IMG/VR virus record: IMGVR_UViG_3300022752_000223
Location: 1-33,837 of that record
From: a virus
Lineage: Duplodnaviria; Caudoviricetes
Reading direction: 5' to 3' (one strand)
Length of the DNA stretch: 33,837 bases
This document shows, piece by piece, positions 17,162-33,784 of the stretch. The notes below the pieces were generated by a model. The model worked only from the letters and a program-made list of their open reading frames with translations, was not told where the DNA came from and made no database searches. The translations under genes and the position numbers were made by a program. Within the stretch, counting starts at the first letter, position 1. Each line of letters begins with the position of its first letter.

Positions 17162-17179
17162 TTTTATAAAGTTAATAAT

Positions 17180-17479
17180 ATGTGGAAAATAATAAAATTA
17201 GAGTGCTTATTAAATTATAATAATTTACAAAATGTAGTTTTAAAAGCATACTGGGAATATACTATTAGTCAAGATAATGAACAAGAAACTATTAGTGGTA
17301 TTAAACAATTTACAGCACCTAGTGAAGATAATTTTATTCCCTATGAAAATTTAACAGAACAAATAGTGTTAGATTGGTTGTGGAAAGAAATTAGTAAACA
17401 AGCCACAGAAGAACTAGCTATTAAAAAATTAAATGATAAAATAAATCCACCAATAATTAGTTTATCTTTGCCTTGGTAA
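17180..17479 (+). CDS. Small fibre-associated hypothetical protein
   Basis: 99 aa with FIPYENLTEQIVLDWL and a terminal LPW. I recall this motif set from small proteins next to fibre genes in aquatic phages. Confidence 0.6.
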   Translation: MWKIIKLECLLNYNNLQNVVLKAYWEYTISQDNEQETISGIKQFTAPSEDNFIPYENLTEQIVLDWLWKEISKQATEELAIKKLNDKINPPIISLSLPW

Positions 17480-18583: not shown

Positions 18584-18934
18584 ATGGAATCTATAGAAAA
18601 TCAGGGATTAGTACAAACACTTTCATTAGTTGCAATGGCTATAATTGCACTAGGTATTGGTATACAGAAATTATTAAAACAATGGAGTACTACAAACGCA
18701 GAAACTAGTGTTATTGAAATGATGCACAAAGAAATAGAGCGTATGGGTACACAAAATGCTAAGTTACAAGAAGAACTTAGTAAACTACAAAATGAACTTA
18801 TTGAACTAAATAATCAACTTAGTAAACTTAGTATAGAAAATAATAAACTACAAGAAGAAGTAAGTGCACTTACACTAGAGCTTAATAGTTTTAAAAAGTT
18901 GGCAGCTATTAGAAAGATAAAGGTGCAACAGTGA
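18584..18934 (+). CDS. Single-TM coiled-coil membrane protein (holin-like or unknown)
   Basis: 116 aa. Hydrophobic LVQTLSLVAMAIIALGIGI segment, then about 7 regular heptads (LQEELSK-LQNELIE-LNNQLSK-LSIENNK-LQEEVSA-LTLELNS). SD GGGAG. Confidence 0.55.
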   Translation: MESIENQGLVQTLSLVAMAIIALGIGIQKLLKQWSTTNAETSVIEMMHKEIERMGTQNAKLQEELSKLQNELIELNNQLSKLSIENNKLQEEVSALTLELNSFKKLAAIRKIKVQQ

Positions 18935-19524
18935 CACCGGCAAAAATTAATTATAAAATTTATCAAGGCAGTACTTTTAGGGAAATATATCGCTGGGAAT
19001 CACAAACTAAACAGTATGCTAATATTACTGCTATTACAAAAGCGGCTCCTTGTGTAATAACTGCACCATCTCATACAGTACCTAGTGGATGGCGAGTTCG
19101 TGTAACTGGTGTTGGTGGTATGAAAGAAATAAATATCACATCAGAAGATGGCTATTATATTGCTACTAGTGTAGCCGCTAATCAAGTAACACTTAATCAA
19201 ATAAATAGTAGTAGTTATACAACTTATATAAGTGGTGGTATACTAGAGTGGAATCATCCAATAAGTCTTGTAGGATATACTGCTAAAATGCAAATTAGAG
19301 AAACAGTAGACAGTTCTACTGTTATTCTAGAATTAACTCATTTAAATGGTGGTATAGTATTAGATACAGCGAATTATACTATTACAGTAAATATGACTAA
19401 TGTTCAAACTGCAGCATTTACTTTTCCAGTAGCAGTTTATAGCTTAGAACTTACAGATAGTAGTGGATTTGTAACAACTTTTATTCAAGGTAATTTAACT
19501 CTAATACCGGAGGTTACAAGATGA
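18931..19524 (+). CDS. Putative collar / side-fibre anchoring protein (T5 p132-like beta sandwich) with inserted domain
   Basis: 197 aa, GTG start. IYQGSTF...LVGYTAKMQIR...AVYSLEL...QGNLTLIPEVTR frame interrupted by a ~75-aa ITAITKAAPCVIT...VTGVGGMKEIN segment. Confidence 0.55.
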   Translation: MTPAKINYKIYQGSTFREIYRWESQTKQYANITAITKAAPCVITAPSHTVPSGWRVRVTGVGGMKEINITSEDGYYIATSVAANQVTLNQINSSSYTTYISGGILEWNHPISLVGYTAKMQIRETVDSSTVILELTHLNGGIVLDTANYTITVNMTNVQTAAFTFPVAVYSLELTDSSGFVTTFIQGNLTLIPEVTR

Positions 19525-19754
19525 CAACTGAAGTAATTGTAACCGAAAAAAATAATCAAGTAGTTATCGAAAGAAAAGAACCTCAAGTTATAGTTGCTGG
19601 CTTAATGGGACCTAATAGTAGTATAACTGGTTTAACAGACGTAGATCTTTCAAACTTAACAGATGGCGGGCTGTTGGTTTATAGAACTTTAGTACAAAAA
19701 TGGGTAGCAACCACAACGCTTGACGCTCAAAATATGGAAGGCGGCTACTATTAA
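19521..19754 (+). CDS. Short fibre adaptor-like protein
   Basis: 77 aa. N-terminal beta strands plus GLMGP, then an LTDVD...LVY...KW fibre motif and C-terminal MEGGYY. Confidence 0.5.
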   Translation: MTTEVIVTEKNNQVVIERKEPQVIVAGLMGPNSSITGLTDVDLSNLTDGGLLVYRTLVQKWVATTTLDAQNMEGGYY

Positions 19755-19767
19755 TCGGAGATAATAA

Positions 19768-22473
19768 ATGGCTTCAACAATTCGTATTAAGCGTACAACT
19801 ACTGGCGGTAGTCCAGGTACCCTAGGTTTAGGAGAACTAGCATATGCATTTACTAGTGCAACAGCTGGTTCTGGAAAACTATATATAGGTGGTGGTACAG
19901 AAACATCAGGAAATGCAAGTGCTAGAGTAGTGCTTGGTGGAGAATACTATACAGCATTAATTGATAGTGGTGGTGCAGGCGGCACACTTACTACTAATGC
20001 AAAATCTATACCTGTACTTAGTGCTACTGGTACTATTGACACTTGGAAAGTTGGTAATTTACAACTTACAGCTAATGCATTAAGTTCTACAAATGCTAAT
20101 GGTGATATTAGTATTACACCTAATGGTACTGGTAAAACTGTTATTAGTAATGTTTATATTGGTGATACTAGTACAACACTGCAAGAATATATTTATGATC
20201 AAGTTGGTGGTACTATAGCTAATGGTACTGGTATTACCACAACTTTTAATGATTCTAGTAATACTACAACTATTGCCATTGATAGCACTGTAGCCACACT
20301 TACTGGTACACAAACACTTACTAATAAAACAATAAATCTTTCTAGTAATACATTAACTGCTACTAGTTCACAACTTGCTACTGCAATTACTGATGAAACA
20401 GGTAGTGGTAGCTTAGTATTTGCTACAAGTCCAACACTAGTAACTCCTGTACTAGGTGTTGCTACAGCTACAAGTATTAATAAACTTGCTATTACTGCAC
20501 CTACAACTAGTGCAACACTAACAATAGCTGATGGTAAAATACTAACAGTAAGTAATACTTTAACTTTTACGGGTACAGATACAAGCTCAGTAGCTTTTGG
20601 TACTGGTGGTACAGTTGCTTATACAGCTAACAAATTAAATGTATTTGCTGCTACAACTAGTAGTGAACTAGCAGGTGTAATCAGTGATGAAACAGGTAGT
20701 GGTGCATTAGTATTTGCTACAAGTCCAACACTTGTAACTCCAACACTTGGTGTAGCTAGTGCTACAAGTGTCAACAAGTTGGCTATCACTGCCCCTGCTA
20801 ATAGCGCAACATTGACTATTGCAGATGGCAAGACACTAACAGCAAGTAACACATTGACATTCACTGGTACTGATAGCAGTTCAGTAGCATTTGGTGCAGG
20901 TGGTACAGTTGCTTATACAGCTAACAAATTAAATGTATTTGCTGCTACAACTAGTAGTGAACTAGCAGGTGTAATCAGTGATGAAACAGGTAGTGGTAGC
21001 TTAGTATTTGCTACAAGTCCAACACTAGTAACTCCTGTACTAGGTGTTGCTACAGCTACAAGTATTAATAAACTTGCTATTACTGCACCTACAACTAGTG
21101 CAACACTAACAATAGCTGATGGTAAAATACTAACAGTAAGTAATACTTTAACTTTTACGGGTACAGATACAAGCTCAGTAGCTTTTGGTACTGGTGGTAC
21201 AGTTGCTTATACAGCTAACAAATTAAATGTATTTGCTGCTACAACTAGTAGTGAACTAGCAGGTGTAATCAGTGATGAAACAGGTAGTGGTGCATTGGTA
21301 TTTGCTACAAGTCCAACACTAGTAACTCCTGTACTAGGTGTTGCTACAGCTACAAGTATTACGGCTACTAGTGGTGCACTAATAATTGCAGGTGCTGCTG
21401 GCAATAATAATGTTACTATTACTCCAACAGGCACAGGTACTGTTGATGTAAGCAGTAAACGTATTACTAGTGTTGCTGATCCTACACAAGCACAAGATGC
21501 TGCAACTAAAGCATATGTAGATGCAGTAAAAACTGGTTTAGATATTAAAGATAGTGTACGTGCTGCAACTACAGCAAATATTACATTAAGTAATACTCAA
21601 ACTATTGATGGCGTAGCCCTTAGTGTTGGAGATAGGGTACTTGTTAAGGATCAAAGCACAGCTAGTCAAAATGGTATCTATGTTGTAGCTAGCGCAGCAT
21701 GGACAAGAGCTATTGATTTTGATAATACACCTGGTACTGAGGTTACTAGTGGTGTATTTACATTTGTTGAAGAAGGTACTGTTAACAGTGATAGTGGTTG
21801 GGTACTTACTACTGATGGTACAATTACTCTAGGTAGTACAAATTTAACTTTTGTACAATTTAGTGGTGCTGGTCAAATTATTGCTGGTGGTGGTTTAACT
21901 AAAACTGGTAATACACTAGATGTAGGTGGCACAGCAAATCGTATTACAATTAATGCTGATAGTATTGATATTGCTAGTACTTATGTAGGTCAATCTAGCA
22001 TTACTACACTAGGTACAATTGCTACAGGTACATGGCAAGCTACAATAATTAATCCTATTTATGGTGGTACTGGTGTAAATAATGGTAGTAGTACTTTAAC
22101 ACTAGGTGGTAGTGTTACACATGCAGGTGCATTTACTCAAACATTTACTGCTACTGGTAATACTAGCGTTACTTTACCAACAACTGGTACACTTGCTACA
22201 TTATCTGGTACAGAAACATTTGCAAATAAAACATTAACAAGTCCTACTATTAATAGTGGCGCAATTAGTGGAACATTTACAGGTGCAGCAACACTTAGTG
22301 GTATTATTACACTATCTAGTAATACAGTATCTAGCTCAACTACAACTGGTACATTAGTAGTTACTGGTGGTATTGGAGTTAGTGGTACAATTTATGTAGG
22401 CACAAATATAACTGGTGCAGGAGCAGCAACTTCTACACTAGATGGATTTACAATTGATGGTGGTACATACTAA
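19768..22473 (+). CDS. Long tail fibre protein with 98-aa internal repeats
   Basis: 901 aa, Thr/Gly/Ser-rich. N-terminal IRIKR...PGTLGLGELAY. Conserved fibre domain DAATKAYVD...SVRAATTANI...GDRVLVKDQ...NGIY. C-terminal IDGGTY. SD GGAG. Confidence 0.85.
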   Translation: MASTIRIKRTTTGGSPGTLGLGELAYAFTSATAGSGKLYIGGGTETSGNASARVVLGGEYYTALIDSGGAGGTLTTNAKSIPVLSATGTIDTWKVGNLQLTANALSSTNANGDISITPNGTGKTVISNVYIGDTSTTLQEYIYDQVGGTIANGTGITTTFNDSSNTTTIAIDSTVATLTGTQTLTNKTINLSSNTLTATSSQLATAITDETGSGSLVFATSPTLVTPVLGVATATSINKLAITAPTTSATLTIADGKILTVSNTLTFTGTDTSSVAFGTGGTVAYTANKLNVFAATTSSELAGVISDETGSGALVFATSPTLVTPTLGVASATSVNKLAITAPANSATLTIADGKTLTASNTLTFTGTDSSSVAFGAGGTVAYTANKLNVFAATTSSELAGVISDETGSGSLVFATSPTLVTPVLGVATATSINKLAITAPTTSATLTIADGKILTVSNTLTFTGTDTSSVAFGTGGTVAYTANKLNVFAATTSSELAGVISDETGSGALVFATSPTLVTPVLGVATATSITATSGALIIAGAAGNNNVTITPTGTGTVDVSSKRITSVADPTQAQDAATKAYVDAVKTGLDIKDSVRAATTANITLSNTQTIDGVALSVGDRVLVKDQSTASQNGIYVVASAAWTRAIDFDNTPGTEVTSGVFTFVEEGTVNSDSGWVLTTDGTITLGSTNLTFVQFSGAGQIIAGGGLTKTGNTLDVGGTANRITINADSIDIASTYVGQSSITTLGTIATGTWQATIINPIYGGTGVNNGSSTLTLGGSVTHAGAFTQTFTATGNTSVTLPTTGTLATLSGTETFANKTLTSPTINSGAISGTFTGAATLSGIITLSSNTVSSSTTTGTLVVTGGIGVSGTIYVGTNITGAGAATSTLDGFTIDGGTY
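20392..21360 (+). repeat. 294-bp tandem repeat, 3.3 units
   Basis: GATGAAACAGGTAGTGGT recurs at 20392, 20686, 20980 and 21274. Units 1 and 3 appear identical by eye, unit 2 is diverged. Confidence 0.92.
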
Positions 22474-22526
22474 TCTATAGGCAATCATTTTTGATTATAA
22501 GCCAACCTTTTTAGGATATTAATTAA

Positions 22527-22967
22527 ATGGCAAATAAAGTTATATTAAAGAAAAGCTCGGTAGTTGGTAAAGTACCACTAGCTGCCGATCTTGATTATGG
22601 CGAAGTAGCAATTAATTATGCAGATGGAAAACTGTTTTATAAGAAAACAGATAATACAATTGCAGAAATTAGTGGGGCTGGTGGCGTTGGAAATAATAAT
22701 TTACAAACTAGACGAGTATATGAATTTACAGCAACTAATAATCAAACTACTTTTAGTGTACCTAATGGCTATATAGTAGGTGGAATAGATGTAATTATTA
22801 ATGGTAGTTTATTAGCTAGTACAGATTATACTGCTACAAATGGAACAACAGTTGTACTAGCAGAAAATGCTGTTGCAGGAGATTTTATACGTATAGTTGC
22901 ACTAGATAGCCCTACCGCTACAGAATTAAGTAACTTTTCAATTGCAATGGCAATTGCACTAGGATAA
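22527..22967 (+). CDS. Fibre adaptor / branch protein
   Basis: 146 aa. N-terminal ILKKS...PLAADLDYGEVA resembles the 19768 N-terminus. The ATNNQTTF...DYTATNGTTVVL domain is shared with 25685. C-terminal IAMAIALG. Confidence 0.6.
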   Translation: MANKVILKKSSVVGKVPLAADLDYGEVAINYADGKLFYKKTDNTIAEISGAGGVGNNNLQTRRVYEFTATNNQTTFSVPNGYIVGGIDVIINGSLLASTDYTATNGTTVVLAENAVAGDFIRIVALDSPTATELSNFSIAMAIALG

Positions 22968-22971
22968 TACT

Positions 22972-23307
22972 ATGCCATTTAAAAGTAAAATATCTGCAAA
23001 TATAGGAACCAGTGGTAGTCCCACAACCGTTACTGATACAGTTAGTGCAAGTACTGCACATACTGTTATAGGATTATCACTAGCAAATATAACTGCTAGT
23101 AATATTAATATTAGTGCAAAATTACTTAAAAGTGGCGGCACTAATGCACATCTTATTAAAGATGCTACTATATTGCCTGGAGGCACACTCGTACTAGTTG
23201 GCGGTGATCAAAAAGTAGTATTAGAAGCTGGTGATAGTATAACAGCTTGGAGTAGTAGTAGCAGTAGTTGTGATGTAGTTGTAAGCTATCTATCAGCAAC
23301 TAATTAA
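22972..23307 (+). CDS. Small beta-sandwich structural protein
   Basis: 111 aa with VIGLSLAN...PGGTLVLV...KVVLEAGDSI...VVVSYL. Paralogue of 31413..31775. Confidence 0.6.
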   Translation: MPFKSKISANIGTSGSPTTVTDTVSASTAHTVIGLSLANITASNINISAKLLKSGGTNAHLIKDATILPGGTLVLVGGDQKVVLEAGDSITAWSSSSSSCDVVVSYLSATN

Positions 23308-23317
23308 GGAGAATACG

Positions 23318-24397
23318 ATGCCATATATTGGAAATGCTCCTTATCAAGGTGTTATAGATAGTGGTAATATTTTAAATGGCACTATTGATACTGTAGATAT
23401 TAAAGATGGTGCAATTACAAATGCTAAATTACTTAATAGTGCAATAACTATTAATGGAACAAGTGTTAGTTTAGGTGGATCTACTACTATTGCTGGTGGT
23501 GTTACAGGTAGTATACAGTATAATGCAGGTAGTACATTTGGTGGTGTTTCAACATTTGTATACGATTCTGCCAATGGTTGGATGGGAATTGGCACAGCTT
23601 CACCAACTGAAGAATTAACGGTTGCTGGACAAGGCATATTCTACACTGATACTATTAATACACATAGTTATAGTTTAACAAATGGCGGCACCGCATATGG
23701 TGGGGCAAATGTACCACATATTACTATAGGTTCTACTAATGGTAGCTATGCACACCTATTAATTAAAGGTGGGGCTACAGCTGCCGACGGTAGTAATGTT
23801 CCTATTATAGGCATGGCAGTAAGAAATAGTGCTGGTAACTATACACTAGGTGCACAAATTGGTATATTAACAAATAGTGCTGGTTCAACTGCTGGTAGTG
23901 AAAATCATGGTTTGTTTTTTGGTACACAAAATGGTGGTACAGCTGTAGCTATACGTGCTTATTTTGAACCTGCAGGTAATTTTGTACCCAATAATAACGT
24001 AACTTATACTTTAGGTACAATTAATTTACGTTGGTTGCAAACTTATACGCGCGATATTTTTGCTAGCAAATATAATCGTATTATACAAAGCATAACCTCT
24101 AGTGCTGGTACTCAAACAATTGATTTTAACAGTGGTAGTTCTGTTGTATTAACACTTAATGCTGGTATTACAGGCTGGACACTACAAAATATTCCTAGTA
24201 GTGTAGAATTTGAATTTAGACTATATATAGTAATTGCGGCTGGAGGTAGTATAAGTACCTGGCCAACAGGGGTGAAATGGGCCAACGGACAAACACCATC
24301 TTTATCAACTACAGCAAGTAAAATCGATGTAATTAGCTTTGTTACATATGATGGTGGATCATCTTGGTTAGCTATGGTAGTAGGACAGAATTTCTAA
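23318..24397 (+). CDS. Tail fibre-like protein
   Basis: 359 aa. MPYIGN start, GIGTASP fibre motif, PNNNVTYTLG...RW motif, C-terminal TWPTGVKW...P.LST...DVISFVTYDGGSSW domain. SD AAGGAG. Confidence 0.7.
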   Translation: MPYIGNAPYQGVIDSGNILNGTIDTVDIKDGAITNAKLLNSAITINGTSVSLGGSTTIAGGVTGSIQYNAGSTFGGVSTFVYDSANGWMGIGTASPTEELTVAGQGIFYTDTINTHSYSLTNGGTAYGGANVPHITIGSTNGSYAHLLIKGGATAADGSNVPIIGMAVRNSAGNYTLGAQIGILTNSAGSTAGSENHGLFFGTQNGGTAVAIRAYFEPAGNFVPNNNVTYTLGTINLRWLQTYTRDIFASKYNRIIQSITSSAGTQTIDFNSGSSVVLTLNAGITGWTLQNIPSSVEFEFRLYIVIAAGGSISTWPTGVKWANGQTPSLSTTASKIDVISFVTYDGGSSWLAMVVGQNF

Positions 24398-24398
24398 T

Positions 24399-25175
24399 AT
24401 GATCTATACAACTTATCAACATCAGCCAACTTGCTCTATTGCAAGAATAGCACAAAATACTTCTGTAGGTGTAGCAGGTAATATTAACCTAACAGCAACT
24501 ACTAACCAACAAATACTACCTGGCGATGGAATTTTAATCTTTGTGTCCAATAAAGGTGTTAATAACTGGACTGCTATGTATGGACCTGATGATGTTAATG
24601 GTCAAAAAACCATATCTGGTCAAAATAGTGCAGGACAGCTAGGTAGTCCAAATGTTCAAGCACGTAGTGCAGGTGGTACTGCTGCACACCTAGTATGGGC
24701 AGGTATTGCTGGTGGTACAATAGCTGCAAACAGCAACTTTCAGGTATTTATTAACTCAGGTAATGGAACCCTACTAAGTGTTTTTAGAATACGTGGAGCA
24801 CCTAGACTTGAAAATCATTCAGCTCTTACACTAACTAATGGCATTGCTAATACTGTTTATGGTGTAGGAACGTGGAGAAGTACAGGTGCCAACCAAGTTA
24901 CAGGAATAGGTGGTTATAGACGAAACCTAGTACTTGTAATGCTAATAACATCAGGTATAGCCAATAATATTATTAATGGTACAGCTAACTATTTTCAGTT
25001 AATTGATAGCGTATATTTTAATATTGCAAGCTCAACTGGACTTTCACCTTCTTCAATAATAGGAACTTTAACTTACTGGAACGTTGTTGATCCAGTAGCT
25101 GGAAATCAATTCTTAATAAGATTTCCACTAGCTACACCTAATGCAACAATAACTGGTATGAGATTTGTAATATAG
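24399..25175 (+). CDS. Putative adhesin / fibre tip protein
   Basis: 258 aa, Gly/Asn/Thr-rich, beta-rich, tightly coupled to the upstream fibre gene. No family recognised. Confidence 0.45.
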   Translation: MIYTTYQHQPTCSIARIAQNTSVGVAGNINLTATTNQQILPGDGILIFVSNKGVNNWTAMYGPDDVNGQKTISGQNSAGQLGSPNVQARSAGGTAAHLVWAGIAGGTIAANSNFQVFINSGNGTLLSVFRIRGAPRLENHSALTLTNGIANTVYGVGTWRSTGANQVTGIGGYRRNLVLVMLITSGIANNIINGTANYFQLIDSVYFNIASSTGLSPSSIIGTLTYWNVVDPVAGNQFLIRFPLATPNATITGMRFVI

Positions 25176-25183
25176 GAATAAAC

Positions 25184-25447
25184 ATGTATCAAGTTCATGT
25201 AAATATGCAATTTTATAAACTAGCACAAGACCTGCAAGAAGCTACTAGTATAGTTACTCAAGCAATGCTAGCTCACCCTGGCCAACCAGTAACTATTATA
25301 CCAGTAGAAAGTTTAGATGATCAAATTATCTATAACACACCATTGCCTGAAATAGATATTAGTACTAGGATGCTTACAGCTGAGCAACTGGCTATTGTAG
25401 GTGGATTTCAACCTGTAGGTCAAGATCAACCCATTGGTCTAAGCTAA
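25184..25447 (+). CDS. Hypothetical protein
   Basis: 87 aa with SD AGGA. N-terminus resembles the next ORF. Confidence 0.55.
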   Translation: MYQVHVNMQFYKLAQDLQEATSIVTQAMLAHPGQPVTIIPVESLDDQIIYNTPLPEIDISTRMLTAEQLAIVGGFQPVGQDQPIGLS

Positions 25448-25449
25448 CT

Positions 25450-25671
25450 ATGATTAAGCAAGTATTCTTAAATGGTAAATTTTTACAAACTATAAACAGC
25501 AATGATACTGAAACTATACAAACTATTAAAAATCAGTATCCTGATCAAGAAATTACTGTAACAGAATCTAGCACAGAACAAAATATAGATAGTATGGTTA
25601 ATGTCTCTGATCAATTAATATCTGGTGTAGCTTTTATGGAAGTACAAATACTTTCAAACTTACCACAGTAG
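25450..25671 (+). CDS. Hypothetical protein
   Basis: 73 aa, fills the gap in the operon. QVxxNxxF...PxQxxT pattern shared with 25184. Confidence 0.55.
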   Translation: MIKQVFLNGKFLQTINSNDTETIQTIKNQYPDQEITVTESSTEQNIDSMVNVSDQLISGVAFMEVQILSNLPQ

Positions 25672-25684
25672 TTAAGGATAAATT

Positions 25685-26884
25685 ATGGCATATTTAGGAA
25701 ACGGTCCAGGAGTTGCTTCACAGCGCACTACAACAACTGTGGTGGCAACTAGTGGACAAACAACATTTACACCAACTAGTGGATATTCGCTTGGTTACCT
25801 AGACGTTTTCCTAAATGGCGTTAAACTGGTCAATGGCAGCGATTATACAGCCAGTAATGGTACCACTGTGGTATTAGTGTCAGGTGTGCAAGCTGGTGAT
25901 AGTGTTGAACTAGTAGCCTACACGCCACGCGGTTTATCAGATGGATATACAAAAACAGAAGCAGATCTACGCTTTCCAGTACTAGATGGTACTGGAAAAG
26001 TAGCTAGCCAACAATTACCTAGCTATGTAGATGATGTTCTAGAATATAACAACTATGCCGCATTACCCGCAACGGGTGAATCGGGCAAAATATACATAAC
26101 CTTAAATAATAATAAAGTATATCGTTGGTCAGGCAGTGTTTATGTAGAGATAGTAGCTACTCCAGGCAGTACTGATAGTGTTACTGAAGGTTCAACAAAT
26201 CTCTACTATACAAATGCTAGAGCACGTAGTAGCTTAAGCTTTACAGCAGGCAGTGGTGCCTATAACAGCAGTACAGGTGTTATTACAATACCTACTAATA
26301 CCAATCAGCTAACTAATGGTAGTAATTATATTACACTAACTAGTTTAAGTGCTACTACTGCTAGTGGAGTTAGCTATAATAATACTACAGGTGTTATTAG
26401 CCTGTCAAGTATACCTAACAATAGTCTAGCAAATAGTAGTATAACTATTAATGGTACAAGTGTTAGTTTAGGCGGATCTACTACTATTGCTGGTGGTGTT
26501 ACTAGTGTTAATACCTTAACAGGAGCTGTAACACTTACTACTGCAAACATCACTGAAAATACCAACCTCTACTATACAGACGCCAGGGTAGCTACTAAAC
26601 TTGGCACTACTAGCATAGACGCACTGAGTGATGTAGACACAACAACTAGCGCACCTACTAACAGCCAGGCCCTAGTATGGAATAGTACTAGTAGCAAGTG
26701 GGTACCAGGCACAGTTAGTGCTACTGGTGGCGGTAGTAATGCAGCCTTTTATCTTAATGATACAACTATAACCACAAACTACACAATTCCTAATGGACAA
26801 AATGCTATGACAGCTGGACCGATCACTGTTGTTAATAATGTAGTTGTTACGATTCCCGACGGATCAACTTGGACGGTGGTATAA
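25685..26884 (+). CDS. Tail fibre-like mosaic protein
   Basis: 399 aa. MAYLGN start, ATSGQTTF...DYTASNGTTVVL domain, QLPSYVDDVLEY...GKIY...YRWSGS domain, two ExxNLYYTxAR repeats, C-terminal NAMTAGPIT...VTIPDGSTWTVV. Confidence 0.75.
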   Translation: MAYLGNGPGVASQRTTTTVVATSGQTTFTPTSGYSLGYLDVFLNGVKLVNGSDYTASNGTTVVLVSGVQAGDSVELVAYTPRGLSDGYTKTEADLRFPVLDGTGKVASQQLPSYVDDVLEYNNYAALPATGESGKIYITLNNNKVYRWSGSVYVEIVATPGSTDSVTEGSTNLYYTNARARSSLSFTAGSGAYNSSTGVITIPTNTNQLTNGSNYITLTSLSATTASGVSYNNTTGVISLSSIPNNSLANSSITINGTSVSLGGSTTIAGGVTSVNTLTGAVTLTTANITENTNLYYTDARVATKLGTTSIDALSDVDTTTSAPTNSQALVWNSTSSKWVPGTVSATGGGSNAAFYLNDTTITTNYTIPNGQNAMTAGPITVVNNVVVTIPDGSTWTVV

Positions 26885-27436
26885 ATGAGTACAGCAAGAT
26901 TTAATCGATGGGAATTAACTTCAGGGCAATTAGTTAGCACAATTGTTCAAACTGCTTATGTCAGCAGTGTAACCAGAACAACATTGAATTCCACAAGTTT
27001 TGCAGAGCCCAGTACAAATTATCGAGTATCTATCACACCTAGATTTGCGAATAGTTTAATAAGTTTACAATATTACATACCTGCCAACCCCGGAGCTAGT
27101 TATGCTTCTAATACTATCTATAGTTTTAGAGCTTTTAGGAGTGTAGCAGGAATTAAGACATATTCATTTCTTACCGCAGGAGTAGCAAATGGCAGTAGGC
27201 AAGTATTTGCAGGAATTACAATGAGGCCCCCTGGGCAAGATGTAAACGATCCTATGTGGGTAAACTTCATAGCTCTTGATACACCTGGCACAACAAACAC
27301 CTGTGAGTACGGGTTTGAAGCTATGAGGGAATCGGGCGGTACGGGAGTTTTATATTTTGGATATACATCCGGGGACACTGCTATTTGGGGTTTTGATCAC
27401 GATATAGTAATTATTGCTAAGGAGATAGCACAATGA
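26885..27436 (+). CDS. Putative fibre tip / receptor-binding domain protein (module A, copy 1)
   Basis: 183 aa with IVQT...SITPRFANSLI...LDTPGTT...IIAKEIA. Paralogue of 27750. Confidence 0.55.
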   Translation: MSTARFNRWELTSGQLVSTIVQTAYVSSVTRTTLNSTSFAEPSTNYRVSITPRFANSLISLQYYIPANPGASYASNTIYSFRAFRSVAGIKTYSFLTAGVANGSRQVFAGITMRPPGQDVNDPMWVNFIALDTPGTTNTCEYGFEAMRESGGTGVLYFGYTSGDTAIWGFDHDIVIIAKEIAQ

Positions 27437-27747
27437 ATGTAAGTACTGCTTTATTGAGTTTATGTCCTCAAGCTGAATTTATTTTAGAAAATGAAGATTA
27501 TAGTTCTATAGTTTGGTTAAATAACAGACCTGAAGTTGAGCCATCATTAGAACAACTACAGTCAGAAATCGCCAGGCTACAGGCTGATTATGACGCTAAA
27601 CTGTATCAACGTCAACGTGCTCAAGCATACCCGCCCATACAAGATTTGGCCGATGCCATCTATTGGCAAACACAAGGAAATACAGAACCAATGAATGCTT
27701 ACATTGCTGCCTGTGCTCAGGTAAAACAACAATATCCTCAAGGATAA
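27433..27747 (+). CDS. Putative fibre assembly chaperone, XkdW-like (module A partner 1)
   Basis: 104 aa with ALLSLCPQAEF...Y..I.W...P...YQRQRAQAYPPIQD..DA...VKQQYP. Paralogue of 28274. Confidence 0.55.
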   Translation: MNVSTALLSLCPQAEFILENEDYSSIVWLNNRPEVEPSLEQLQSEIARLQADYDAKLYQRQRAQAYPPIQDLADAIYWQTQGNTEPMNAYIAACAQVKQQYPQG

Positions 27748-27749
27748 TT

Positions 27750-28277
27750 ATGCCCAGCTATGCAAAATTTGATATATGGCAAAATACTGCCGGGATTATA
27801 AGACAAACTATTCTCCAAGTAGTAACTGTGGTTAAAACTGACACATTTGCTACTACTAGTACAACTCCTGTTGATATTTCGGGATTGTCTGCCAATATTA
27901 CTTTATCATCTAACACAAACAAGGTACTAATAACAGGTACTCTTTATGCCGGCACAGATAATCCTTATTCTGGTGCATGGTTGTTCGGTGGGTTATTGGC
28001 TAGAAACGGAACAGCAATCTCTAGACATGATGTAGCATCTAATAGAGGAAGATTGTTTTGGGGCACTCAAGCACCAGGTAATACAGATGAAACTATAGCT
28101 TTTCCGATTAATTTTCTTGATTCGCCTACTAGTACCAGTCAATTAACTTACAGTCTACAGGCCCAAGCCGAAAGCCCTAGGACAGTATGGATAAATCGTG
28201 GAGCAGAAACCGACGGTGACGTATCAATTTCTGCTCGTTTCGTTAGTACACTTATTTTAATGGAGGTTGCATCATGA
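27750..28277 (+). CDS. Putative fibre tip / receptor-binding domain protein (module A, copy 2)
   Basis: 175 aa from ATG 27750 (SD AGGA), preferred over 27663. ILQVV...DISGLSANIT.SS.TNKVLI...FLDSPTSTSQLTY...LILMEVA. Confidence 0.6.
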   Translation: MPSYAKFDIWQNTAGIIRQTILQVVTVVKTDTFATTSTTPVDISGLSANITLSSNTNKVLITGTLYAGTDNPYSGAWLFGGLLARNGTAISRHDVASNRGRLFWGTQAPGNTDETIAFPINFLDSPTSTSQLTYSLQAQAESPRTVWINRGAETDGDVSISARFVSTLILMEVAS

Positions 28278-28576
28278 TTGATCGTGCATTAAAAAAGTTG
28301 CGGCCCGGTGCAGAATGGTCACTAACGGGAGATACATATTCCGGCATAACCTGGCACGATCAAACTCAAACGCAACCCACTCAGGAAGAAGTCGTAGCGG
28401 CTATTGAAACAATTAAAGCTGAAATCGCAGCGACTGAATATCAACGTCTCAGAGCACGTGAATACCCGCCTGTCACAGATTACTTAGATGCTGTGGTCAA
28501 AGGGGACCAAGCTCAAATTGATAAGTATATACAAGATTGCCTAGCAGTTAAGGCCAAATATCCCAAACCGGAGTAG
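28274..28576 (+). CDS. Putative fibre assembly chaperone, XkdW-like (module A partner 2)
   Basis: 100 aa with ALKKLRPGAEW...Y..I.W...PT.EE...YQRLRAREYPP..D.LDA...VKAKYPK. SD GGAGG, ATGA overlap. Confidence 0.6.
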   Translation: MIDRALKKLRPGAEWSLTGDTYSGITWHDQTQTQPTQEEVVAAIETIKAEIAATEYQRLRAREYPPVTDYLDAVVKGDQAQIDKYIQDCLAVKAKYPKPE

Positions 28577-28579
28577 GTT

Positions 28580-29152
28580 ATGCCAATTAGTATAAGCGGA
28601 TCACAGATAATTTTACCTGATAGCAGTGTATTAAACGGTAGTGCCTATGCCAATTTTGGTACACTATTTGATGACGCTTTAACGATCACTGTATCAAGCT
28701 CGGCCACTGATGGAACCACAATGCCTATATATAGGGTGTTTGGTATACCTAAAAATATCTCAGTAACTACAAATACTTCAGGCGGAACTTGGACACATAC
28801 ACTAACAGGTATATATGCATTGCATATGAGCTATCGACAGGCCAGCGGCGGGGATATTTGGACAATCTATGCAGTAACTAAAGATGGAACTACCAATGCA
28901 GTGGGTGTCACAGCAAGAATGGGGTCTGAGGACAATCATACAGAAGATTTTCACATTATCTATCGGGTAGACAGTACCGCATCAACTTATAGATTACAAG
29001 GTTGGACACATACTAGTACAAGAACAGCAGGTATTGCAAGTGCCCCTTCAGGAAATCCTGGGTGGACTATGTCTCCTACTACTGATCTGACACTAGGTAC
29101 TTGGAAAGGTCGCACAGTGGATATTTGGATATTTAGAATTGCAAGTTTATAG
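28580..29152 (+). CDS. Putative fibre tip / adhesin protein
   Basis: 190 aa, beta-rich. MPISISG N-terminus resembles that of 29162. Confidence 0.5.
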   Translation: MPISISGSQIILPDSSVLNGSAYANFGTLFDDALTITVSSSATDGTTMPIYRVFGIPKNISVTTNTSGGTWTHTLTGIYALHMSYRQASGGDIWTIYAVTKDGTTNAVGVTARMGSEDNHTEDFHIIYRVDSTASTYRLQGWTHTSTRTAGIASAPSGNPGWTMSPTTDLTLGTWKGRTVDIWIFRIASL

Positions 29153-29161
29153 GAGAAAAAC

Positions 29162-29371
29162 ATGCCACTAGAATTAAGCGGCGATCGCGGCGTAACCTAC
29201 TCAACCTGGACTACAGCCGCTAGACCTAGTTCACCCAGTATAGGGTTGGCAGACGTGCAATTAGTTAATAAAGCAGTTTTTGATCGTTATCGTAGTGAGT
29301 TACGTAATATAGTATTAAATCCACCTATAACTGTTACATGGCCCACAGAACCTGAAGCTGTTTGGAGTTAA
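29162..29371 (+). pseudogene. Probable in-frame deletion remnant fusing a fibre N-terminus to a chaperone C-terminus
   Basis: 69 aa: MPLELSG...WTTAARPSSPSIG joined to LADVQLVN...YRSELR...WPTEPEAVWS. Strong SD AGGAG, so it may still be translated. Confidence 0.5.
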
Positions 29372-29373
29372 CT

Positions 29374-30750
29374 ATGCCAAGTCGCGCGTTTCAACAAGCT
29401 ACCTTACTAGGTAGTGATGGTGTACTAAATACTGCAGATCTAGCCGGTTTAGCGACTGTGGCAACAACTGGCAGTTATAGTGATCTAACCAATAAACCTA
29501 CATTGTTTTCTGGTAGTTATAATGATTTAACAAACAAGCCAACACTTGCCACAGTTGCAACTTCAGGTAGTTACGCAGACTTATCTAATAAACCTACACT
29601 ACTAATTTGGCAATCCGTCCAAACCACAGGCTTCACGGCTGTCGCAGGCAGAGCTTATCCCTGCAACACCACCTCAGCAGCCTTTACAGTCACGCTGCCT
29701 GCAAGCCCATCGGCAGGAGATTTGGTAACGCTGATGGACTATGCTGGGACGTGGGCAGCCAACAACCTTACAGTCAGTCCTAATGGAGGAAAAATTGCTG
29801 GGTCAACATCTAACAGCATTCTTGACTTTAGCAGACAATCTGTTCAATTTGTTTATATTGATTCGACGCAAGGGTGGTGCATCTATTCAGGCTATAAAGC
29901 AACAGTTGGCAGCACACCTCCTCCTACAGTTCAATTATTTATGATTGGAGGTGGTGGTAGTGGCGGTAGTGGTGCCGACGGCGGTGGCGGTGGTGGTGGT
30001 GCTGGTGGCGTTGTAACAACTGCTTCTTGGATAGTTGCAGGTGGAACGACTTATTCAATTGTTGTAGGAAACGGTGGAACTGGAGCTAGCGCCTCGGTTG
30101 GACAAGACGGAGGAGATACATCAGCGTTTGGACTTGTTGCAAAAGGGGGCGGGGGCGGGGGTGGCGGTCCGCGAGGCAGCCAGGTTGTAGGTCGAAGCGG
30201 CGGTTCTGGTGGAGGTGGTTGTGGTTTTATTGCCTATAACGCAGGCGGCGCCTCAATTCAATCTTCGTACAACACCGGTGCTGCAGGAATCACGCAGTAT
30301 GGAAACGCCGGCGGTGGCAATGGTGCATATGCGAGCCCTTTGCCAGGAGGTGGTGGTGCAGGGGGCGCTGGAAGCGTTAATAATGGCGGTGGTATCGGTA
30401 TTGAATGGCCAAGCGGTTCAGGTGTTTATTACGCCGGCGGGGGCGGCGGGAGCGCAACTCCATATTCGGGCAACTCAACTGTTAACGCTGGTGTGCCTTA
30501 TGGAGGTGCCGGTCAAGTCGGAGATGGGGTCAACGGAGGAAATGGCACAGCAGGCAAAGGATCGGGCGGTGGAGCATCGGGCTCGGGCGGGGCTGGACCT
30601 ACTGGCGGCAACGGCGGTTCTGGTGTCGTCGTCATCCGCTATTCCGATGCTTATTCTGCACCAATTTCATTATCTGGATCGCCAACCGTCACGGTGAGCG
30701 GCGGTATACGTGAATATAAGTTTACCGGTTCGGGTTCAATTACGTTCTAA
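29374..30750 (+). CDS. Glycine-rich fibre / adhesin protein (module B, copy 1)
   Basis: 458 aa from ATG 29374 (SD GGAG). Three GSYxDLxNKP repeats, a TVTLPASPSAGD...QGW domain, then a polyglycine domain (GGGGSGG...YYAGGGGG...GNGGSGVVVIRY). Confidence 0.75.
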   Translation: MPSRAFQQATLLGSDGVLNTADLAGLATVATTGSYSDLTNKPTLFSGSYNDLTNKPTLATVATSGSYADLSNKPTLLIWQSVQTTGFTAVAGRAYPCNTTSAAFTVTLPASPSAGDLVTLMDYAGTWAANNLTVSPNGGKIAGSTSNSILDFSRQSVQFVYIDSTQGWCIYSGYKATVGSTPPPTVQLFMIGGGGSGGSGADGGGGGGGAGGVVTTASWIVAGGTTYSIVVGNGGTGASASVGQDGGDTSAFGLVAKGGGGGGGGPRGSQVVGRSGGSGGGGCGFIAYNAGGASIQSSYNTGAAGITQYGNAGGGNGAYASPLPGGGGAGGAGSVNNGGGIGIEWPSGSGVYYAGGGGGSATPYSGNSTVNAGVPYGGAGQVGDGVNGGNGTAGKGSGGGASGSGGAGPTGGNGGSGVVVIRYSDAYSAPISLSGSPTVTVSGGIREYKFTGSGSITF

Positions 30751-30759
30751 GAGGCTTAC

Positions 30760-31119
30760 ATGGCACATTTTGCTCAGTTAGATGAAAACAATCTTGTGAC
30801 GCGAGTAATCGTTGTACACAATAATGAATGCCTTGACGCACACGGCGTTGAGAGTGAAACGGTTGGAGTGGCTTTTTGCATGCGCTTGCTTGGCGGCGTA
30901 TGGAAGCAAACTTCATACAACGCCAATTTTCGCAAGAACTACGCAGGCGTGGGCTACACCTACGACCCTGACCGTGACGCTTTCATCCCGCCTAAGTCTT
31001 ATCCCAGTTGGGTGCTCAATGAGCAGACATGTCTCTGGGATGCTCCGGTAGCTATGCCGCAAGATGGCAAGCGATATCAATGGTATGAGGCGACGACCAG
31101 CTGGATAGAAATAACATGA
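30760..31119 (+). CDS. Conserved small partner of glycine-rich adhesin (module B partner 1)
   Basis: 119 aa: MAHFAQLDENN...WKQTSYNANFRKNYAG.G..YD...FIPPK...SW.L...W.AP...Y.W.E. SD GAGG. Confidence 0.7.
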   Translation: MAHFAQLDENNLVTRVIVVHNNECLDAHGVESETVGVAFCMRLLGGVWKQTSYNANFRKNYAGVGYTYDPDRDAFIPPKSYPSWVLNEQTCLWDAPVAMPQDGKRYQWYEATTSWIEIT

Positions 31120-31150
31120 TAATATTTAAGTACTTACTAGCGAGGTAAAC

Positions 31151-31411
31151 ATGACTAAAGCCATTACACTAGCACGTAGCGTTTCAGCTGGCGGAGCAAT
31201 AAGATTAGCAGAATTAGCAGCAAATGGTAATAATACAGCAGGATTACGTGCTCCTGATGCATTATCTAATGATATTACATGGAAACTGCCTATTCAAGAT
31301 GGACAGGTTAATCAAGCACTAATTACTGATGGTAGTGGTAACCTAAGTTTTGCAAATGCAGGAATTTCAGCAGGTAAAGCAATAGCTATGGCTATTGTAT
31401 TTGGAGGATAA
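31151..31411 (+). CDS. Short fibre adaptor-like protein
   Basis: 86 aa with WKLP..DG...QALITDGSGNLSF fibre motif and C-terminal KAIAMAIVFGG. SD GAGG. Confidence 0.6.
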   Translation: MTKAITLARSVSAGGAIRLAELAANGNNTAGLRAPDALSNDITWKLPIQDGQVNQALITDGSGNLSFANAGISAGKAIAMAIVFGG

Positions 31412-31412
31412 T

Positions 31413-31775
31413 ATGGCAGCACCAAATATAGTAGCAGTTACAACTATCACAGGCAAAACAATAGGTGCAGCAGTAACTACATCTCTTACAGCCGTTCTTA
31501 CTAATTCTAGTAGCAGTAATAAAGTATTTAAAATAAACTCTATTGTTGCAGCAAATATAGATGGTGTTAATAATGCAGATTTAACAGTTAGCATATATAA
31601 AAATGCAACTACAGATTACTATCTAGCTAGTACAATTAGCGTACCAGCAGATACAACTTTAGTAGTTAGTAGCAAAGATAGTAGTTTTTATCTAGAAGAA
31701 AATGATAGTATTAGAGCTTTAGCAAATGCTAATGGTGATATACATATTATTATTAGCTATGAGGAAATAAGCTAA
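31413..31775 (+). CDS. Small beta-sandwich structural protein
   Basis: 120 aa from ATG 31413 (SD GGAGG). MAAPNIV...INSIVAAN...VPADTTLVV...YLEENDSI...IISYEEI. Paralogue of 22972. Confidence 0.65.
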   Translation: MAAPNIVAVTTITGKTIGAAVTTSLTAVLTNSSSSNKVFKINSIVAANIDGVNNADLTVSIYKNATTDYYLASTISVPADTTLVVSSKDSSFYLEENDSIRALANANGDIHIIISYEEIS

Positions 31776-33415
31776 TGTTTAATGGTAATTTACGAGGCAA
31801 AAAAACTACTACATCGAGCAATGCTGTTAGCGGATTATTTAGCTTAGAAAATCAATTTATAGAAAAATTATCAGGAACCTGGACCCTAAATCAAGCCACT
31901 TATAGTGTTAGTCCTAGTACTACAAATTTAAATGAATCAGATACAGTAACCTTTACTGTATCTACAACAGATGTACCCAATGGTACTACATTATATTGGA
32001 CAAATAGTGGAACTACTAGTGCTAGCGATTTTAGTGATTCTTTAAATAGTAGTAGCTTTATTATTACAAACAATACCGCGACTATTACTAGGATTATAAG
32101 ATCCGACGCATTAACTGAAGGTAGCGAAACTATAGCTATAAATATAAGAACTGGAAGTACATCTGGAACTATTGTAGCTACTAGTAGCACCGTTACAATA
32201 AATGATACTAGTTTAACACCAAGTTATTCTGTAACACCTAATTTTACTAGTATTAATGAGTCAGGCAGTGTAACTTTTACTATAATTACATCTAATGTTA
32301 ATAGTGGAACTACATTATATTGGACAAATAGTGGTACTAGTAATGCTAATGATTTTAATGAGAATGCAAATAGTGGCTCTGTTGTTGTTACTGGTACTTA
32401 TAGTAGTTCTAGTGGAACTGTAACATTTACTCCTACTCAAGATGTATCTGTAAATGAGGGCAGTGAAACTATTATTTTTCAATTAAGAACAAGTAGTATT
32501 TCAGGTACGATAGTAGCTACTGCTGCAACTGTAACTATTGTAGATAGTAGTTTTAAAACTGCTCCCTCAGATGTGGATTTCTTAGTTGTAGCAGGCGGAG
32601 GCGGCGGTGCTATTAATAGAGGAGCTGGCGGAGGAGGTGCTGGCGGCATGATATATGGTAATACGTCTATCGCTTTAAATAATACTTATAATATTACTGT
32701 AGGCGGCGGCGGAGCAAATAGTTATGATATTAGTCCTCCAGGTTCAAGTACTACAGGTGGTAATGGTAGTGGAAGTTCGTTTTTTGGTTCATTAGCAACT
32801 ACTGGTGGAGGTGGCGGTGGTAGCTGGAATGGTGGTACAGCAGGACAAAATGGTGGATCTGGTGGTGGCGGTGGTGCTGGTGGTCGCGGATATACGGTAG
32901 GTGGTGGCCAAGGAAATGATGGAGGAAATCCAGATTTTGGAGCTCAACGTGGTGGTGGAGGCGGCGGACGTGGCGGAGCAGGTGGAAACGGTAGCGGAAC
33001 TACTACAATTAATGGAAATCCTGGAGGTGGGGCAGGTGGATTAGCTCAACAATGGCCAGGAAATGGTAATTATTATGCTGGTGGTGGTGGTGGTTCAGGA
33101 AATCAAGGCGATGGAGCAGGCCAAGGTGGTTTAGGTGGTGGCACTAATAATGGTGGTCAAAAAGGTGGAGGTGGTAACGGTACTGGCGGACCCAATACTG
33201 CTGAAGATGGCGGATATATGACAGGCGGGGGTGGAGGTGCCGCAGGCCAAGATAGTGGTTCCTCAGTAAGATCAGGAAATGGTGGCAGTGGTATAGTGAT
33301 AATAAGATATCCTAACACTTATAGTACACCTACTGTAACTGGTAATCCAGATATTTATAATAATGGCGGATACTATTTATATGTATTTGCTGGCAATGGA
33401 ACAATAAGATGGTAA
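31775..33415 (+). CDS. Adhesin with two Calx-beta/Ig-like repeats and a glycine-rich domain (module B, copy 2)
   Basis: 546 aa. Two repeats of YSV.P....NE...VTF...GTTLYWTNSGT...DF...EGSETI...RT...SGTIVAT, then VDFLVVAGGGGG...YYAGGGGG...GNGGSGIVIIRY. Confidence 0.75.
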   Translation: MFNGNLRGKKTTTSSNAVSGLFSLENQFIEKLSGTWTLNQATYSVSPSTTNLNESDTVTFTVSTTDVPNGTTLYWTNSGTTSASDFSDSLNSSSFIITNNTATITRIIRSDALTEGSETIAINIRTGSTSGTIVATSSTVTINDTSLTPSYSVTPNFTSINESGSVTFTIITSNVNSGTTLYWTNSGTSNANDFNENANSGSVVVTGTYSSSSGTVTFTPTQDVSVNEGSETIIFQLRTSSISGTIVATAATVTIVDSSFKTAPSDVDFLVVAGGGGGAINRGAGGGGAGGMIYGNTSIALNNTYNITVGGGGANSYDISPPGSSTTGGNGSGSSFFGSLATTGGGGGGSWNGGTAGQNGGSGGGGGAGGRGYTVGGGQGNDGGNPDFGAQRGGGGGGRGGAGGNGSGTTTINGNPGGGAGGLAQQWPGNGNYYAGGGGGSGNQGDGAGQGGLGGGTNNGGQKGGGGNGTGGPNTAEDGGYMTGGGGGAAGQDSGSSVRSGNGGSGIVIIRYPNTYSTPTVTGNPDIYNNGGYYLYVFAGNGTIRW

Positions 33416-33421
33416 TAAATT

Positions 33422-33784
33422 ATGGCTCATTTTGCAAAATTAGATGAAAATAATAATGTATTAGAAGTATTAGTTGTAAAAAATAGTATGCTATTAGATA
33501 GTAATGGTGTTGAACGCGAGGAATTAGGAATAGCTTTTTTAGTTACTTGGTCAGGAGGACACCCTTACTGGAAACAAACCAGTTATAATAATAGTTTTAG
33601 AAAAACTTATGCTACAATTGGTTCTAAATATGATCCAGATAAGAATATATTTATTGCACCAAAGCCTTTTAATAGTTGGATACTAGATACTGAAGGTAAT
33701 TGGCAAGCACCTATATCTAAACCACTAGATAATAAAGAATATTATTGGAATGAAGCTGAGTTAAATTGGCAAGAAGTAACATAA
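33422..33784 (+). CDS. Conserved small partner of glycine-rich adhesin (module B partner 2)
   Basis: 120 aa: MAHFAKLDENN...WKQTSYNNSFRKTYA. Clear paralogue of 30760..31119. Confidence 0.7.
   Translation: MAHFAKLDENNNVLEVLVVKNSMLLDSNGVEREELGIAFLVTWSGGHPYWKQTSYNNSFRKTYATIGSKYDPDKNIFIAPKPFNSWILDTEGNWQAPISKPLDNKEYYWNEAELNWQEVT

Follow-up and report, generated by a model that had tools for sequence, protein, structure and literature searches.

The window analysed here is the whole 33,837-nucleotide (nt) stretch of IMG/VR record IMGVR_UViG_3300022752_000223, a linear record of an aquatic bacterial virus (Duplodnaviria; Caudoviricetes) estimated to be 32% complete. It contains a T5-like tail module, recognised through Pfam and PHROG, with a p143 completion protein, terminator, major tail protein and chaperones, together with a 2,463-amino-acid (aa) open reading frame (ORF) at the tape-measure position and a straight fibre bearing collagen and peptidase S74 domains. 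The next 22 ORFs, on the + strand within 18931-33784, form the fibre locus whose gene termini are the subject of this report. Short C-terminal motifs ("plugs") recur there ahead of genes that carry a gp37/Mtd_N-type N-terminal domain ("head") or encode a small beta protein ("adaptor"), both of which we propose to act as sockets. Genes are named below by their first nucleotide, and L and G numbers are our handles for related sequences. The features are as follows.

18931..19524, +: collar protein homologous to T5 p132/LtfC and carrying an insertion of ~85 aa within it (profile A4).
19521..19754, +: 77-aa stub with plug EGGYY at 19734-19754 (recurring cassette; alignment A6).
19768..22473, +: 901-aa fibre shaft, gp37/Mtd_N-type head at residues 1-54 and plug DGGTY at 22456-22473 (head hidden Markov model, HMM).
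Within 19768..22473, +: shaft interior with three ~98-aa repeats and a decoration-like domain at residues 599-717 (DNA repeats; PDB matches).
22527..22967, +: 146-aa linker, gp37/Mtd_N-type head followed by plug IAMAIALG at 22941-22967 (gp37 matches; plug statistics).
22972..23307, +: type-1 jelly-roll adaptor, 111 aa, predicted hub (predicted structure; phrog_26609/1276).
23318..24397, +: branch with MPYIG start and C-terminal fibre domain at residues 255-358 (MxYIG class; phrog_9017 tail fibre, E 9e-16).
24399..25671, +: three orphan ORFs, 24399-25175 (258 aa, possible tip, a guess from position), 25184-25447 and 25450-25671.
25685..26884, +: double-ended branch with MAYLG start and a 48-aa module ending GSTWTVV at 26738-26884 (IMG/VR relatives).
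Within 26885..29152, +: small likely tips 26885-27436, 27750-28277 and 28580-29152 (phrog_6942, phrog_29834 and phrog_9114 across the region).
Within 26885..29152, +: likely chaperones 27433-27747 and 28274-28576 (XkdW, E 0.018, below cut-off).
29162..29371, +: likely deletion relic of 69 aa, in which a fibre start runs in frame into a chaperone end.
29374..31119, +: glycine-rich tip 29374-30750 and MAHFA partner 30760-31119 (Gly_rich_2, E 2.5e-13).
31151..31411, +: 86-aa linker with type-2 plug IAMAIVFGG at 31382-31411.
31413..31775, +: type-2 jelly-roll adaptor, 120 aa (74 relatives; VFG-plug clade).
31775..33784, +: tip with Ig-like and glycine-rich parts, 31775-33415, and MAHFA partner 33422-33784 (Gly_rich_2, E 2.9e-12; Ig_3, E 1.2e-5).

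A preliminary description of this DNA had proposed that some 20 genes build a multi-level tree of fibre proteins, on the strength of three features: (i) GGxY-type ends followed by proteins with a common N-terminus, (ii) IAMAI-type ends followed by paralogous beta proteins, and (iii) N-termini that come in pairs. All the termini it quoted were found where it had placed them, the ATG starts of 31413 and 27750 are those it had used, and the paralogy of 22972 and 31413 held (23% identity, E 0.002; one HMM matches both). A third C-terminal module, the one ending GSTWTVV on 25685 (hereafter WTVV module), had been missed.

Five scans of IMG/VR yielded 476 viral loci. Three sets were collected as protein relatives, of 22972 (80 kept of 502), 31413 (74 of 74) and the WTVV module (80 of 236), and two by exact DNA pattern, AMAIALG-stop (120 of about 800 stored stretches) and IDGGTY-stop (122 of about 3,100). 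Genes were called on the main strand of each locus with a simple caller, which reproduced the genes of the window, and the 5,857 called proteins were compared by BLAST. Junctions at open ends, with gaps above 150 nt or with a next gene below 45 aa were left out, and the remaining 5,035 were collapsed to 3,866 distinct junctions; since kin stay among the loci, the counts that follow are not independent events. The wider plug patterns were written after the data had been seen.

Among these junctions the two plugs were never exchanged. The hydrophobic AxxLG helix preceded an adaptor 173 times and a head not once, and the C-terminal DxGx[YF] motif preceded a head 99 times and a small beta protein not once. 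Read forward, AMAIALG-stop had an adaptor as the next gene in 83 of 97 cases; ten of the 14 exceptions were T4-like phages with a neck gene next (the neck label is taken from Melnitz), and in two others an inserted gene parts plug from adaptor. Read in reverse, with the motif-chosen junctions left out, an ALG or VFG plug lay upstream of 96 of 118 adaptors, as against 12 of 3,651 junctions elsewhere (37/37 in the loci of 22972 relatives, 50/62 in those of 31413 relatives). The upstream genes bearing the two plugs belong to 36 and 32 unrelated N-terminal families, range from 54 to 1,326 and from 68 to 917 aa, and include T7-type tail fibres (HTVC019P) and a fibre annotated as gp36 (PhiW-14).

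Plugs and adaptors also matched by subtype. ALG plugs accompanied type-1 adaptors 39:0 and VFG plugs type-2 adaptors 30:1, with 22 type-2 cases fitting neither pattern. We placed 170 adaptors in a FastTree phylogeny of 116 columns and counted changes over the 148 rows left after omission of 22 plugless ones. Plug type changed three times on this tree and fibre body 69 times, compared with 35-44 and 107-114 changes in the ten shuffles printed. Four fibre-body families carry both plug types, and the clade that contains 31413 (48 rows, support 99) counts 44 VFG plugs and lacks ALG plugs altogether. At the level of sequence, plug subtype thus tracks the adaptor tree and not the fibre body, which is the behaviour of a code and not of whole-gene common ancestry.

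Sets of cultured phages gave the same picture. In ten diverse records, chosen from 21 and 64 matched by adaptor queries (HTVC010P, HTVC019P, HMO-2011, CRP-9, S-TIM5, Melnitz, PhiW-14, YerA41, RHph_TM40 and PHB04), a plug lay upstream of all 11 adaptor copies, and the gene directly after the adaptor began with an aromatic-[IL]-G start in eight of the 11, with variants in two and with neither in one. We take HTVC010P, HTVC019P, HMO-2011 and CRP-9 to be podoviruses and S-TIM5, Melnitz, PhiW-14, YerA41 and RHph_TM40 to be large phages of myovirus type. In CRP-9 (L482:12334-15117) a 35% match to the C-terminal domain of 23318 (24080-24397) likewise lies between the adaptor and a large fibre gene, immediately next to the former; this domain is possibly a fourth connector.

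The adaptor itself belongs to an unannotated family. No Pfam family scored above cut-off, the PHROG families that it matches (phrog_26609/1276) have no function assigned there, and a search of the ESM Atlas with 22972 and 30760 returned unnamed viral clusters only; among predicted viral structures the adaptor had 170 matches at E 0.001 or better. Its profile found nothing significant in the PDB, the best hit being the P22 tailspike head-binding domain (E 0.11). The predicted structure of 22972 (mean predicted local distance difference test score, pLDDT, 94.7) is all beta, a single jelly roll, and its fold matches, in tied rows, were 7vrr (Z 9.8, root-mean-square deviation (rmsd) 2.5, 94 aligned), 7dou (Z 9.5, rmsd 2.9, 102 aligned) and 8qpg (Z 9.0, rmsd 2.7, 96 aligned), at 9-17% identity and with no sequence match to any of them. 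Prediction of a complex of three adaptors (A1) with three AIALG tails (A2) scored 0.03 against a mark of 0.32; the controls did not fold, so this result speaks neither for nor against the joint. We consider joint (ii) to be probably a physical contact.

Some relatives depart from the simple order. In L001:3607-4161 and L002:13753-14307 a 184-aa protein combines an adaptor domain with its own VFG-type plug and stands ahead of a second adaptor, and adaptors may therefore chain. A YAIIFGF variant of the plug (L209, L247, L255, L274, L278, L099) precedes long proteins starting MARQLIEKY. The idea that these are fused adaptors was not supported, as their N-terminal domain had no adaptor match (probability 0.4%); that domain may be another socket.

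Joint (i) gave similar statistics. With motif-chosen junctions left out, a GGxY or DLGxx plug was found upstream of 73 of 100 heads, compared with 31 of 3,659 junctions elsewhere, and subtypes agreed again (GGxY with KRS heads 59:2, DLGxx with RRG heads 11:1). IDGGTY-stop was followed directly by a head in 58 of 104 cases, with the head one gene further in nine and other genes in ten; in the remaining 27 the motif closes a podovirus stub of ~77 aa that stands behind the tail tube gene. In these small podoviruses (L204, L271 and 25 more IDGGTY-stop junctions; G020, G037) the stub occupies the tail-fibre position, and a head-bearing fibre gene follows the major capsid gene; stub and head are likely to form this joint in trans. 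A GGx[YF] end occurred at 24 of 3,659 non-cognate junctions, and at this rate, and at that of 12 in 3,651 for the ALG/VFG plug, the presence of two of each plug in one window, each ahead of its cognate class, is not chance. The adjacency statistics that the preliminary description had proposed thus hold clearly whether read forward or in reverse, and they do so on fibre bodies that are unrelated.

As a novelty, joint (i) did not stand. The head of 22527 gave tblastn matches to the gp37 genes of phiR1-RT, TG1 and EcS1 and matched phrog_35830 (E 6e-9), and the start of T4 gp37 (residues 1-50) scored 56 bits on head profile A3 (E 1.5e-19 for one sequence). The proteins upstream end correspondingly, T4 gp36 in QDFGYY and that of phiR1-RT in IDFGAY, next to EGGYY and DGGTY in the window. 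The C-terminus of gp36 binds the N-terminus of gp37, according to a review (PMC9603124). Because it is homologous to the T4 gp36-gp37 junction, joint (i) is a known physical joint reused, and we regard a physical contact here as very probable. The search of the PDB with the head profile gave no significant match (best E 0.026, unrelated) and found no structure of the T4 gp36-gp37 joint. Pfam Mtd_N (PF18454) matched 13 of 62 relatives of the head family (best E 4.9e-14) and none of the window heads at E 0.05, and Mtd scored 11.9 bits on profile A3. Judged by these profiles, the window heads are of the same wider family as Mtd_N and of another subtype, KRS. In BPP-1 the fibre protein Bbp9 ends DLGGIA directly upstream of Mtd, whose head is RRG-like.

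At its proximal end the locus opens with a recurring cassette: collar, stub of 70-95 aa ending GGx[YF], head gene. That 18931 is a collar protein, as first suggested, was confirmed by profile A4 of its family, which matched T5 p132 (7qg9_R, E 1.5e-9, profile positions 4-110) and 8hqz_Q (E 8e-10). 18931 also matched PDB 26dk_M over its full length (E 1.2e-21); this chain, a solved structural protein of 197 aa, has the same collar-plus-insertion layout, and its relatives are common in Pseudomonas temperate phages. In DT57C the first fibre protein is caught in the collar ring by its N-terminal beta strands (PMC10713586), and by analogy with LtfA there the stub 19521 is likely anchored in collar 18931. 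The position of 18931 in a T5-like tail module would fit a dodecameric tail-tip collar in which fibre N-termini are trapped; in other phages the p132 family adjoins neck or head genes.

Within the shaft 19768, DNA 20382-21361 holds three 294-nt repeats that are 86-97% alike, and the counterpart in L002 is only 520 aa long, so that shaft length likely varies by repeat number. Residues 599-717 (21562-21918) resemble a capsid decoration protein (9nx3_A, E 1.2e-5; phrog_2647) and also a tail fibre (23sh_r, E 9e-5). This domain touches two further loci, L269 and L317. L269 encodes a free 166-aa protein whose start is similar to it and which ends DGGEF ahead of a head gene; joint (i) may accordingly serve head fibres too.

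Genes downstream of the adaptors fall into classes as well. After type-1 adaptors 73 of 103 genes had an MxYIG start and 19 of 103 an MTKARDLA-like one (background 89 and 12 of 3,575); after type-2 adaptors 26 of 54 began GGxIG (background 24 of 3,575). Several such branch-start genes per adaptor are present in genomes, which fits a multi-way hub. The N-terminal pairs of feature (iii) were accordingly of unequal worth. MPYIGN/MAYLGN (23318, 25685) belongs to the real MxYIG class, and 26885/27750 (MSTARFNRW/MPSYAKFDIW) are distant paralogues (26%, E 0.007). The pair MPISISG/MPLELSG (28580, 29162) is misleading, because 29162 joins a fibre start to a chaperone-like end, and MPSRAFQQA/MTKAITLA (29374, 31151) is a loose resemblance with no significant alignment between the two proteins.

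The WTVV module spans 48 aa, has 236 relatives in IMG/VR, was C-terminal in 145 of 145 matches and sits on 39 N-terminal families. Its model is confident (pLDDT 95); its profile had no match in the PDB and a fold search with the model none either (best Z 2.1), by which a new fold is not shown. Genes two, three and four places past a WTVV carrier had N-termini like those at first place in 31%, 32% and 19% of cases, compared with 2% in the background. We lean, by a little, towards the WTVV module being a hub.

We propose that the lateral tail fibres of this virus are branched and made of separately encoded pieces clipped together by terminal plugs and matching sockets. End tags match the next gene's start in many unrelated phages, and the pieces therefore likely snap into a branched tree; we hold this general reading to be likely, if with less assurance than either joint. 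In the assembly that we envisage, the p132-type collar 18931 would hold stub 19521, whose GGYY end would plug into the head of shaft 19768, and the GGTY end of the shaft would enter the head of 22527. The AIALG helix of 22527, probably as a three-helix bundle, would insert into an oligomer of adaptor 22972. This hub would take branches by their N-terminal peptides, namely 23318 and 25685 (MxY[IL]G) and, with less certainty, 29374 and 31151. The second hub, the WTVV module of 25685, would carry small tips 26885, 27750 and 28580, and 31151 would use its AIVFGG end to dock in the second adaptor, 31413, holder of the glycine-rich tip 31775. Contacts beyond the homology of joint (i), the oligomeric state of the adaptor and the wiring of the branches are read from gene order, and the tree as drawn is tentative. 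The multi-level tree of some 20 genes first described is supported by proteins with a connector at both ends; six of the 22 ORFs, likely chaperones, orphans or relic, are probably not members.

Several observations weigh against this proposal. All support for joints (ii) and (iii) is genomic, and the subtype patterns were written after the data had been seen. Among the 118 adaptors 22 had no recognised plug upstream, and the same was true for 27 of the 100 heads; 14 of 97 AMAIALG-stop ends lacked an adaptor directly next and 46 of 104 IDGGTY-stop ends a head. The partner was present elsewhere in the record for 3 of 19 and 8 of 30, in mostly fragmentary records and with no control; in the sole record at least 90% complete in this trans check the head gene was present. 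The fold gives the adaptor no function, because Z values of 8-10 are common to unrelated proteins (nucleoplasmin, capsid cement). The four genes after the WTVV module in the window scored 27-37, under the threshold of 40, and in loci chosen by neither, adaptors and MxYIG/MTKARDLA starts did not co-occur beyond expectation (1/7 versus 10/113, P 0.5; short loci).

The strongest alternative accepts the joints and denies the single tree: either the locus would encode a number of shorter fibres independent of one another, part of them attached to the head or neck, or its tips would be alternatives in competition for a single hub, each virion bearing a subset. The collar-stub-head cassette does stand immediately ahead of the neck gene among T4-like phages and after the head gene block in Limnohabitans phage DC31, 19768 contains the decoration-like domain, and Melnitz and G004 each have three plugs for two adaptors, which implies that plugs share sockets. 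In the window, however, the cassette follows tail tip genes and begins with a p132 homologue, and proteins with connectors at both ends are frequent: WTVV terminates 31 of 128 MxYIG proteins, and a plug terminates 101 of 138 that bear a head, in sets enriched by the queries. Sequences of such double-ended proteins, including MxY[IL]G proteins of L382 and L384 that end in a VFG plug ahead of a second adaptor, support a second tree level. Independent or competing fibres are a plausible account, to which we give less than even weight.

That the adaptor and some of its partners are assembly chaperones, with the motif bound only in folding and outside the virion, we think unlikely. T4 gp38 is such a non-virion chaperone, encoded right after its fibre (PMC9603124), and a C-terminal hydrophobic helix could act as the nucleus for trimer folding. 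Adaptor homologues are nevertheless labelled virion structural proteins in S-TIM5, HTVC010P, HTVC019P and others (annotations as deposited), and the class of N-terminus in the following gene can be told from the adaptor, which is what one would expect of a two-sided joint. Least likely are motifs that serve as linkage markers, whether recombination anchors or ribosome-binding-site overlap, in cassettes that travel without protein contact: DNA similarity to the near relatives L001 and L002 does form islands around junctions, with junction DNA kept and bodies swapped (L001 is 95% identical over 23014-23431, including the first ~38 codons of 23318, while its MPYIG protein has 889 aa versus 359 in the window), and GGAGG is the sequence of the terminal GG codons at 31411, beside the next ATG, but the protein motif is held while its codons vary freely, to saturation, at synonymous sites, across gaps that exceed 20 nt at 33 of 159 junctions and at 60 of 117 (up to 63 and 97 nt), with adaptors as distant as 23% identity, and in loci whose plug and adaptor are parted by an endonuclease-like gene (L130, L361), and the homologous T4 joint is physical (PMC9603124). 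Ribosome-binding-site overlap could account for no more than the final glycine in the VFGG type; in view of the saturated codons, long gaps and diverged adaptors we rejected overlap and pure linkage as main causes.

The three orphan ORFs at 24399-25671 matched no Pfam or PHROG family at threshold and no other protein by BLAST among those called. Residues 1-39 of 29162 match fibres of 305 and 480 aa and its end resembles Phage_tail_APC (E 0.02, below cut-off), a composition that makes a deletion relic likely. MAHFA genes followed glycine-rich genes at 12 of 18 junctions (background 118/3,866), and the two MAHFA proteins of the window, 30760 and 33422, are 52% identical. The G+C content of 30001-31000 is 55%, against 29-45% elsewhere, which suggests recent acquisition of the glycine-rich half of 29374 together with gene 30760 (29950-31119). 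31775 had no match in the PDB. Diversity-generating retroelement genes were not seen among the annotated ORFs of the window (Pfam, PHROG), and a GTDB scan returned three contigs of metagenome-assembled genomes, with no usable host. Outside the fibre locus, 16598-17479, downstream of the collagen-bearing straight fibre, holds genes for a 2OG-Fe(II) oxygenase and for a DUF7936 protein; the oxygenase may modify prolines of the fibre collagen.

If the proposal is right, it assigns a role to phrog_26609/1276, a phage family that is very common, as the 502 relatives of 22972 and the stored stretches with exact plugs attest, but that lacks annotation and a Pfam entry; it also names the residues of the T4 gp36-gp37 joint. 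It would explain the many small tips carried and exchanged by aquatic phages and make host-recognition modules parsable from sequence, since a connector code would let a phage exchange its receptor-binding tips and add to their number with its tail unchanged. A broader reading, to which we give slightly less than even odds, is that abundant aquatic phages, including HTVC010P, HMO-2011 and T4-like pelagic myoviruses, have in common at least three orthogonal, subtype-matched joints, that a free jelly-roll ring caps the fibre end as a multi-way hub, that gene termini suffice for reading the wiring of a multi-level tree, and that every tip is mobile among podo-, sipho- and myoviruses. The joints are testable in cultured phages.

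End-to-end and branched fibres are already known; joint (ii) with its small adaptor was not found described. No description of the motifs or the adaptor was found in the literature searched, which left subscription journals mostly outside, and the motifs are not described in the accessible parts of PMC4819975, PMC13730344, PMC9602691, PMC12014285 and bioRxiv 10.64898/2026.05.12.724579. In the T4 long tail fibre, gp34-gp35-gp36-gp37, separately encoded segments are likewise joined end to end. There the joint is used once, in an unbranched fibre, whereas in the window it would be used twice in series and lead to adaptor hubs. The 111-aa adaptor is distinct from gp35, which has 372 aa and no match on the adaptor HMM, and the Pfam and PHROG matches of the 22 ORFs (best five families per protein) include no gp34, gp35 or gp36 homologue. 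BPP-1 Mtd, trimers of which sit at fibre ends (PMC2408619), resembles the window in having a plug-type end, the DLGxx of Bbp9, ahead of its head; the window heads differ in being of KRS subtype with no PF18454 match.

With T5 p132/pb1 and DT57C the window shares a p132/LtfC-type collar in a T5-like tail module. In the LtfC-LtfA-LtfB system of DT57C, the first fibre protein threads into the collar and the second attaches through the first (PMC10713586). These phages have one or two fibre proteins where the window has about 14 predicted structural pieces, the first of them a 77-aa stub, and the joints of the window are short reusable motifs. The turret base gp30 of HFTV1 (PDB 8QPG) forms a hexamer that receives the stalk of a trimeric head protein (PMC12494034). 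It is the same small jelly roll as the adaptor in the fold comparison given above, at 14% identity; gp30 sits on the capsid and takes an N-terminal beta barrel, whereas the adaptor is predicted to take a C-terminal helix. The likeness is one of mechanism, by analogy only, and not of membership. G7C, CBA120, KP32, K1-5, phiK64-1 and phiKp24 mount several receptor-binding proteins on one anchor through N-terminal peptides or domains; in these systems the docking domains lie in a tailspike or one tail adaptor, and the tips are mostly depolymerase spikes. Anchor or branching domains of the G7C, CBA120 and KP32 kind did not occur among the listed fold matches of the adaptor. Unlike these, the window has a free jelly roll of ~110 aa that is predicted to cap the C-terminus of a fibre, in subtype-matched pairs that recur across podo-, sipho- and myoviruses.

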